This document shows, piece by piece, positions 52,355 to 53,541 of a DNA stretch of 64,000 bases. The stretch covers positions 1,116,001 to 1,180,000 of the forward strand of contig OZ287087.1 in NCBI GenBank assembly GCA_965645245.1, written 5' to 3'. Within the stretch, counting starts at the first letter, position 1, and the number at the start of each line of letters is the position of its first letter. The DNA comes from Massalongia carnosa (lineage: Eukaryota). The notes under the pieces are model-generated. The model ran no database searches, was not told the origin of the DNA, and was given only the letters and a program-made list of their open reading frames with translations. A program made the position numbers and the translations under genes.

Positions 52355-53078
52355 AATGGCTAAAACATTTTTTGACAAAACGATCGGTCAATCAAATATT
52401 CGATGAAAATATAATCAAAACCTATTATATTGAATCAGGAATTCCACAAGGCTTACCTATTTCACCTATATTATTTTCGATCTACATTCGTCACTTATTT
52501 CCGAAAGTACGAATGAAATTAAATGCATATTCTCCTAGTTTTATTGATGATGTTGCAATATATGTCGAAAAAAAAACTGCAAAACAGAATTGCCAAGAAA
52601 TCGAAATCATAGTTAAAACAGCATTTGATTGTGTTAGAATATACAAATCAGGCTACTTCATTTGTACCGCACGAGTATGACGCACGCTAATGGCTAGACG
52701 TATCGCTAGTCTAATACTAGGATACCGTACATTGTCTATAAATCTAGCTATTCCAACTATATAGAACAAAAGCAAGCGTTCTATCCTCTATCTACTATAC
52801 TGCCTTTTAATAGATTCTGAGACCGGCCGCAGGGCGCCTTTTTACATGTGTTTACTTATCTTACTTTACCTACCCTAAGACAAGCCTTCTTACCGTCGCA
52901 AACAATTACCGTCGCGAATAATCTCCTTCAAAAAATCCGACAAAAATCGACACATATGAAATAGTCGGCAGTGTTTGAGATGGCTAAGCACTACTATCGG
53001 GCGCCCGGCTTCTTCTTTACCCCTTACTAAATGAACGCTAATAAAGATTTTAACAGGCACCTCCTTGCACTTCGTTTC

Positions 53079-53345
53079 GATGTCTCGGATGATCTATATT
53101 CCCAACATAAACCGGGAATATGACATCCAGATGTCTCGGATGATCTACGTTCCATATAAAAAACCGGGAACGTGACATCTACTTCACTTTGATGTCTCGG
53201 ATGATCTACATTCCCAAAAAAAAATCGGAAATGTGACATCCAGGTATCTCGGATGATCTACATTTCTAATAAAAACCGGGAATGTGACATCTAGATGTCT
53301 CGGATGATCTACGTTTACAACAAAAAACCGGGAATGTGACATCTA
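53079..53345 (+). repeat. Five-unit (~51 bp) tandem array of self-complementary units in the Copia 5' leader
   Basis: Units start at 53079, 53130, 53191, 53243 and 53294; consensus gatgtc-tcggatgatct-acattccc-(A-rich)-gggaatgt-gacatc. Confidence 0.93.
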
Positions 53346-53541
53346 TTGGGATGAAACGAAATCTCTCTGCCATCGATTTTGCCCTCTATTCATTGTCAGC
53401 ATCTGCGTATCAGTTATAAGACTGCAGGATTATAGCTTCGAGCAACAAAAAAACGCTCTCGATTTATCAATCCTAAAGGCACAACTAAAAGCCTCAAATC
53501 TATCTTTGCACCTGCTTTTGCTTCTGCATTTAGATCTATTA

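Follow-up and report, generated by a model that had tools for sequence, protein, structure and literature searches.

The 64-kb stretch of Massalongia carnosa DNA analyzed here (contig OZ287087.1, positions 1,116,001 to 1,180,000 of the forward strand; hereafter the window) contains an array of five direct repeat units of about 51 nt in the 5' non-coding part of a Ty1/Copia retrotransposon. With high probability this array is a genuine and old tandem amplification of one stem-loop module, borne by the element and placed inside a short outer inverted repeat. When it comes to its role, the array is tentatively read as a platform of hairpins in the sense RNA that is recognized by a protein. The probability of this reading is put at about 0.35, and an array of DNA sites and a neutral duplication are close behind. 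The array belongs to a known kind, the tandem repeats of retrotransposon non-coding regions, and has an unusual hairpin architecture.

The repeat array and the fold of its units

The array comprises 267 nt on the plus strand, with units starting at 53079, 53130, 53191, 53243, and 53294, which gives start-to-start spacings of 51, 61, 52, and 51 nt. The units themselves measure 51, 51, 52, 51, and 52 nt, the second one being followed by a 10-nt spacer. An initial annotation of the sequence had proposed a five-unit array at this position, and the repeat is real: the 19-mer at the unit start has five matches in the window when up to three mismatches are allowed, all of them on the plus strand, while 0.02 are expected and none of 100 shuffles reaches five. 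Tandem Repeats Finder (TRF) reports a period of 52 nt (53191-53345, 3.0 copies, 84% matches) as well as a two-unit period of 112 nt (53079-53293, 1.9 copies, 85% matches), and the array is the top-scoring tandem repeat of the whole window. No second copy of it was found within the window, either by self-BLAST of 52300-61500 against the window or by the 19-mer scan. The array is situated between the start of the 5' long terminal repeat (LTR) at 52632 and the gag ATG at 56217, outside the coding frames, and stop codons in all three plus-strand frames across it rule out a coding repeat.

An alignment of the five units has 52 columns, 35 of them invariant and 17 variable. Each unit consists of a linker of 8 nt (GATGTCTC), a stem of 15 bp that is interrupted by single-base bulges at A14 and T17, and an A-rich loop of 10-13 nt. 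The stem can be written as GGATG-a-TC-t-AYRTTCCC / GGGAAYRT-GA-CATCY, and its lower part is invariant while its upper part is variable. The loops hold 6-9 A residues in 10-11 nt and no G. This continuous hairpin is the minimum-free-energy fold in four of the five units (units 1-4), and in all five it is more stable than the structure given in the initial annotation, by 0.7-8.0 kcal/mol. The respective energies are -17.9 and -13.9 kcal/mol for unit 1, -14.6 and -13.9 for unit 2, -12.8 and -8.8 for unit 3, -12.1 and -4.1 for unit 4, and -8.0 and -6.8 for unit 5.

In the structure first proposed, an outer stem GATGTC/GACATC enclosed an 11-nt bulge, tcggatgatct, and an inner stem. The outer stem is perfect in four of the five units, but in unit 4 it includes one G-U and one A-C apposition. 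The 11-nt sequence (columns 7-17) is indeed invariant in all five units; it is, however, not a bulge, as GGATG.TC within it pairs with GACATCY. The higher stability of the continuous hairpin indicates that GATGTC and GATGATC are alternative partners of one and the same GACATC. Since the units are tandem palindromes, the junctions between them (GACATC-YA-GATGTC) are palindromic too, and the junction of units 4 and 5 is a perfect 14-mer palindrome.

All units are read on the plus strand. Unit 1 (53079-53129) forms the most stable hairpin, GGATGATCTATATTCCC / GGGAATATGACATCC. Unit 2 (53130-53180) makes up the interval 53130-53190 together with its spacer ACTTCACTTT (53181-53190). The upper stem has one C-A mismatch in unit 3 (53191-53242) and two U-G pairs in unit 4 (53243-53293), where the linker is also altered to GGTATC and where the loop, alone among the five, contains an AATAAA. 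Unit 5 (53294-53345) has the weakest hairpin, with two G-U pairs and one A-G mismatch.

The array is bracketed by ttcgtttc at 53071-53078 and its complement gaaacgaa at 53353-53360, both given for the plus strand. Across four sequence contexts the predicted pairing probability of this outer 8-bp repeat is 0.4-1.0 on the plus strand and 0.4-0.97 on the minus strand. The two arms had been described as a clamp, and the inverted repeat is present as described, but the left arm also forms the last part of a 10-nt spacer, which is found again between units 2 and 3. The sequence preceding unit 1, ACTTCGTTTC, matches the spacer ACTTCACTTT at 7 of 10 positions, which argues that the left arm belongs to the repeated material. 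Folding of both strands had been suggested as a check. The plus strand of 53071-53360 reaches -101.8 kcal/mol (z -6.6) and the minus strand -93.5 kcal/mol (z -5.7), and in neither case is any of 200 shuffles as good.

Conservation and age of the units

The variable columns are unevenly distributed over the unit. In a core made up of the lower stem and the linker (columns 5-18 and 44-50) none of the 21 columns varies, compared to 17 of 31 elsewhere (hypergeometric P = 1.2e-5, for a core that was defined post hoc). Likewise, 1 of 18 columns is variable in the lower stem and 8 of 14 in the upper stem (Fisher P = 0.004). The most conserved stretch is a contiguous block of 27 nt, TGACATC-YA-GATGTCTCGGATGATCTA, which spans the unit junction. 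It is the invariant lower stem, bulges, and linker beneath a variable but still paired upper stem that make us lean toward a hairpin in the sense RNA that is read by a protein.

Pairwise, the units are 82-88% identical, while an alignment of the two LTR pieces of the element over 157 nt shows 6 substitutions (96% identical) and one 16-nt indel. The array is thus older than the insertion of the present copy, and since it had diverged before this insertion, it has passed through retrotransposition.

Candidate roles of the array

In the favored reading, a single module of about 51 nt was amplified five-fold in the 5' non-coding part of the now-dead Ty1/Copia element, before the present copy was inserted. 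In the sense genomic RNA, all five units would fold into equivalent bulged hairpins, and their invariant lower stem, bulges, and linker would be recognized by a protein, the element's own Gag being the obvious candidate partner. The result would be a multivalent platform by the LTR and the primer-binding site (PBS), the region where retroelements keep their packaging and dimerization signals. The GACATC-YA-GATGTC palindromes at the junctions could add RNA-RNA pairing. A more specific version, in which the array is the packaging or dimerization signal of the Copia element, each unit binding one molecule of Gag or of a host protein and the junction palindromes zipping two genomes together, is improbable. 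If true, such a signal would have been built through amplification of one module, in contrast to Ty1 and the retroviruses, whose structures are single-copy. To our knowledge, almost no cis-acting RNA signals of LTR retrotransposons are known beyond those of Ty1 and Ty3, and an array of identical bulged hairpins near an LTR would be an easily testable candidate for Gag recognition. Engineered arrays of hairpins are used to tether proteins to RNA, and the array would be a natural counterpart to these.

The first approximately 380 nt of Ty1 RNA are reported to contain PBS extensions, a pseudoknot, palindromic dimer sequences, and Gag sites (PMC4974528). As portrayed in the available parts of the sources, the Ty1 TIPIRT and the retroviral Psi share three features with the proposed platform: they consist of structured RNA adjacent to the PBS, they bind Gag, and palindromes in them have been proposed as dimer links (PMC4974528, PMC5454406, PMC6844567). 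According to the same parts these signals are single-copy (a pseudoknot, distinct stem-loops, PAL), and those of Ty1 lie largely inside GAG (PMC4974528, PMC5454406, PMC6844567). The array, in contrast, has five copies of one module, and its loops are not palindromic. A palindromic loop that could initiate dimerization through kissing loops is absent from the five units; the palindromes sit at the unit junctions instead.

The upper stem has taken 11 substitutions, yet 32 of its 35 cells (one base pair in one unit) are still paired. Two of the changes are compensatory double changes, C19-G43 to U-A in unit 1 and A20-U42 to G-C in unit 2, and four of five single transitions in the upper stem give G-U on the plus strand. 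Counting all one-sided changes, five cells are G-U on the plus strand, two are C-A or A-C (and hence G-U on the minus strand), and two are A-G. The initial annotation had held that the changes in units 4 and 5 are mostly G-U compatible on the plus strand, which is borne out by five of seven one-sided changes. It had also claimed that the inner stem covaries, and the variants it listed for units 1-3 are correct, but covariation in a statistical sense was not obtained, as described below.

Compensation could in principle arise from matched hypermutable sites in the two arms, through CpG decay or repeat-induced point mutation (RIP). The composition of the window (CpG observed/expected 1.32, TpA/ApT 0.66, TpA 0.70, (CpA+TpG)/(ApC+GpT) 1.23, 39.5% G+C) shows neither CpG depletion nor a RIP signature, though the window consists almost wholly of transposable elements, so that such sites do not readily explain the compensation and this origin is unsupported. 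Another possible source is arm-to-arm templated correction of palindromes.

Several observations weigh against the protein-read sense-RNA platform. The covariation is not significant, five units being too few to carry it. The structure first proposed has 94.3% of 70 cells paired with only two double-sided cells, a result that is reached by 123 of 500 shuffles, and the continuous hairpin has 96.0% of 75 stem cells paired, which is reached by 139 of 500. In a simulation that distributed 8 left-arm and 3 right-arm substitutions randomly over the 35 cells of the upper stem and kept the transition share as observed, the probability of at least two compensatory pairs was 0.06 and that of at least 32 of 35 cells paired was 0.18. 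More generally, when five tandem palindromes are compared, changes that look compensatory have very little weight in statistical terms. The strand signal is also weak, as G-U and A-C are found in only five and two cells, respectively. The folds of both strands are far more stable than those of shuffles, which is expected of any palindrome, and the sense strand is only 8 kcal/mol better than the other. Moreover, the conserved 27-nt block includes the linker, which is unpaired in the best hairpin, and it is at least as compatible with a DNA site. With 10-13 nt the loops are large, and their sequences are neither conserved nor self-complementary. In Rfam 15 no family reaches its gathering score over the array, the best being sn1185 (19.7 bits against a gathering score of 60, E = 1.7).

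The position and history of the array add to these points. The LTR may end at 55916 (see below), in which case it would be about 1.0 kb long with the inserted pogo-like transposon excluded, and the array would lie inside it. No TGG is adjacent to 52788, 53055, or 55916, the three positions considered as the LTR end, and no PBS was recognized there. Of 19 plus-strand ATGs before the gag ATG (56217), counted with the pogo-like transposon removed, 13 lie within the array, where composition predicts 4.4, and this is awkward for a leader that is scanned by ribosomes. Finally, the array is known from one degenerate Copia copy. The evidence for RNA in this one copy is weak, and it is compatible with an RNA element, an array of DNA sites, or a neutral repeat alike.

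It is possible, though doubtful, that the array is instead a set of protein-binding sites in double-stranded DNA and acts as an enhancer, silencer, or insulator. The 27-nt block would then be the site and the approximately 24 nt of A-rich sequence the spacer, while the hairpin potential would be a leftover of a palindromic site bound by a dimer. This would account for the invariant columns forming one contiguous, junction-spanning block with the variable columns between the blocks. The spacings of 51, 61, 52, and 51 nt would correspond to about 5, 6, 5, and 5 helical turns, so that the 10-nt spacer keeps the helical phase; this spacer, however, merely copies the sequence preceding unit 1, and the phasing may be accidental. 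What DNA sites leave unexplained is that the flanks of the supposed spacers stay complementary through 11 substitutions, including the two compensatory changes, although that signal is weak. It further counts against such sites that neither a binding protein nor a known motif was identified for the array. An LTR end at 55916 would suit them, as it would put the array inside the LTR, and repeated enhancers are common in LTRs.

Precedents for DNA sites are found in Drosophila. The leader of copia holds repeated enhancer motifs. In the available part of the source this untranslated leader is described as a protein-bound regulatory region, located just 3' of the LTR in a Copia-type element (PMC2443393). 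A direct precedent is the gypsy insulator, which is reported to occupy 340 bp of the 5' untranslated region (UTR) and to consist of 12 Su(Hw) sites with variable AT-rich sequence between them (PMC2374998). Its length is comparable to the 267 nt found here, and in both cases a conserved motif is repeated with variable AT-rich spacers, as seen from the 0 of 21 core columns and 17 of 31 other columns that vary in the array. Compared with the gypsy insulator as presented in the available part of the source (PMC2374998), the array has five units rather than 12, its 27-nt blocks are palindromic across the junctions, and its spacers have complementary flanks. The two also belong to different superfamilies and hosts. 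Should it consist of DNA sites, a Copia example would be added to the gypsy-type leader arrays.

The array could also be a neutral by-product, although this too is somewhat improbable. A hairpin in a hypervariable non-coding region would then have been duplicated, the mechanism being either template switching in the course of reverse transcription or slippage during replication. The higher-order period of 112 nt, covering two units, and the co-duplicated spacer are typical of stepwise duplication, and a neutral origin agrees with the lack of significant covariation and with a Copia element that is dead and belongs to a low-copy family (one relative with 93% identity, then nothing above 60%). 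Tandem repeats are described as common in the UTRs of LTR retrotransposons, abnormal strand transfer being the proposed origin (PMC7004042). The hypervariable 3' UTR repeats of the Tat/Ogre elements resemble the array in having few tandem units of tens of nt in an internal non-coding region and in being carried through transposition (PMC7004042). They differ from it in belonging to plant Ty3/gypsy elements and in their 3' UTR position, and hairpin units or an outer inverted repeat are not described in the available part of the source (PMC7004042). Against neutrality, divergence is strongly uneven across the unit, unlike uniform neutral decay, and slippage on A-tracts might account for the loops, yet it leaves the contrast between the lower and the upper stem unexplained. 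The array is also older than the insertion, so it has survived at least one round of transposition. If neutral, it would be another retrotransposon tandem repeat of the kind that is able to seed satellites.

Translational control, where a clamped, ATG-rich hairpin block would be bypassed by ribosome shunting or restrain gag translation, is very unlikely: it would fit the 13 ATGs in the array, the 19 before the gag ATG, and the very stable predicted structure (-101.8 kcal/mol) closed at its base by the 8-bp outer repeat, but the array may lie outside the mRNA, and the nearest upstream short frame stops at 53030, 41 nt before the stem base, while the next one (from 53031) enters unit 1. A pararetrovirus shunt needs a short frame that ends a few nt before the stem, and a shunt leader of this type was therefore rejected.

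Some further identities were set aside. The sn1185 match, at 19.7 bits against 60, was judged to be due to chance, and the array was not taken as a snoRNA. An array that is tRNA-like or derived from tRNA was rejected, as ARAGORN found no tRNA in the window and Rfam gave no tRNA match at E up to 10. A faint likeness of the unit and the outer repeat to the T-arm region of eukaryotic initiator tRNA was given no weight. A miniature inverted-repeat transposable element (MITE) or foldback element does not fit either, as the only inverted repeat is the flanking one of 8 nt, no duplication is seen in the flanks (..gcac / atct..), and there is a single copy in 64 kb. The array is not a part of the adjacent pogo/Fot1-like transposon, which has its own terminal repeats, of unrelated sequence and 195 nt from the array.

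The Copia element and its surroundings

The Copia element begins at 52632, where it interrupts a reverse-transcriptase fragment of a long interspersed nuclear element (LINE); intact relatives of this fragment read straight through. The demonstrable part of the 5' LTR (52632-52788, plus strand) starts with TGTTAGAAT, has a TATAAA at 52733, and is homologous to 60581-60753. The latter is the 3' LTR (plus strand), which follows the purine tract GAGTAGGAG and is cut off at 60753, where it meets the 3' terminus of a LINE. The coding region for gag, protease, integrase, reverse transcriptase, and RNase H (gag-PR-INT-RT-RH; 56217-60368, plus strand) is broken into at least five frames. It has Pfam matches to Retrotran_gag_2 (56205-56690), to Pol_BBD, gag_pre-integrs, rve, and SH3 (56691-58616), and to RVT_2 (58953-59729).

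The array had been placed in a Copia leader of about 1.1 kb, which would require the LTR to end at 52788. This length is not established, because that end probably reflects the insertion of a LINE into the 3' LTR. The LTR homology stops at 52788/60753, and a multi-copy LINE family has its 3' terminus exactly at 60754; at least nine other copies of this family in the window start their homology at 60754 or 60755. The adjoining LINE (60754-63939, minus strand) encodes Exo_endo_phos_2 and RVT_1, with frames at 61678-63939. For the 3' terminus of LTRs the consensus YNYAACA has been published (PMC3601003), and the ...ATCCTC at 52788 mismatches it. Furthermore, no TGG follows, and the flanking pentamers differ. 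Taken together, this argues that the true LTR is probably longer than its demonstrable part.

Downstream, YNYAACA sites that mirror the LTR start are found at 53049-53055 and 55910-55916, so that the true end is possibly 53055 or 55916. In the former case, 52789-53055 (plus strand) is the candidate rest of the 5' LTR. It ends in TTTAACA, which fits the consensus; the reverse complement of the site, TGTTAAAAT, agrees with the LTR start in 8 of 9 nt, and an AATAAA at 53041-53046 precedes it. YNYAACA has four matches where 2.4 are expected by chance, and two of them fall inside unit loops; the consensus does not seem to decide the LTR end. With an end at 53055 the LTR would be 424 nt long and the array would begin 23 nt downstream of it, in the place expected of a PBS and packaging signals. 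Judging from the two sites, the array thus either follows the LTR at a distance of 23 nt or is contained in it.

A test for a self-priming duplex gave unconvincing values of -10 and -15 kcal/mol, without a control. A Ty3/gypsy chromovirus at 46505-52354, just upstream of the Copia element, has LTRs of 257 nt (95% identical, 14 substitutions) and one open frame of 1258 aa (48208-51984) for PR-RT-RH-INT and a chromodomain. Its 5' LTR is not followed by a TGG either, which raises the possibility of self-priming of the Tf1/sushi type.

Among relatives of the Copia integrase frame, one (P0001) is 93% identical, the next is 60% identical over 44% of the query, and the others are at most 52% identical; judged by these matches the family appears to be low-copy and poorly sampled. 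A scan of bacterial and archaeal contigs with the unit-start 19-mer gave one exact match, in a bacterial metagenome-assembled genome with unrelated flanks and no array. About four chance matches are expected, and this match seems consistent with chance. Word searches of the literature, judged on titles and abstracts, gave no paper on repeated hairpin arrays in Copia leaders, and a search of the literature for sequence strings gave no match to a 17-mer.

The 5' non-coding region of the Copia element also contains the 10-mer AAAATCCGAC at 52931-52952, within an 11-nt unit that is tandemly repeated 2.1 times. The same 10-mer is found at 60369-60378, directly after the pol stop codon, which could be a motif shared between the 5' and 3' regions or chance.

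The 5' non-coding region is split by the pogo/Fot1-like DNA transposon (53542-55805, minus strand). Its 29-nt terminal repeats (53540-53568 and 55779-55807) are 97% complementary and flanked by a TA duplication, and lie 195 nt from the array. The transposase, with DDE_1, HTH_psq, and HTH_Tnp_Tc5 domains, is encoded on the minus strand and split over three frames. The transposon also has a 17-nt subterminal repeat at 53551-53587 and, downstream of the transposase frames, a CCT/CCA-rich stretch of low complexity at 53743-53822 with periods of 9 and 24. Elsewhere, in the LINE-rich part of the window, there is a 73-nt tandem duplication at 17447-17595, the copies of which are 98% identical.

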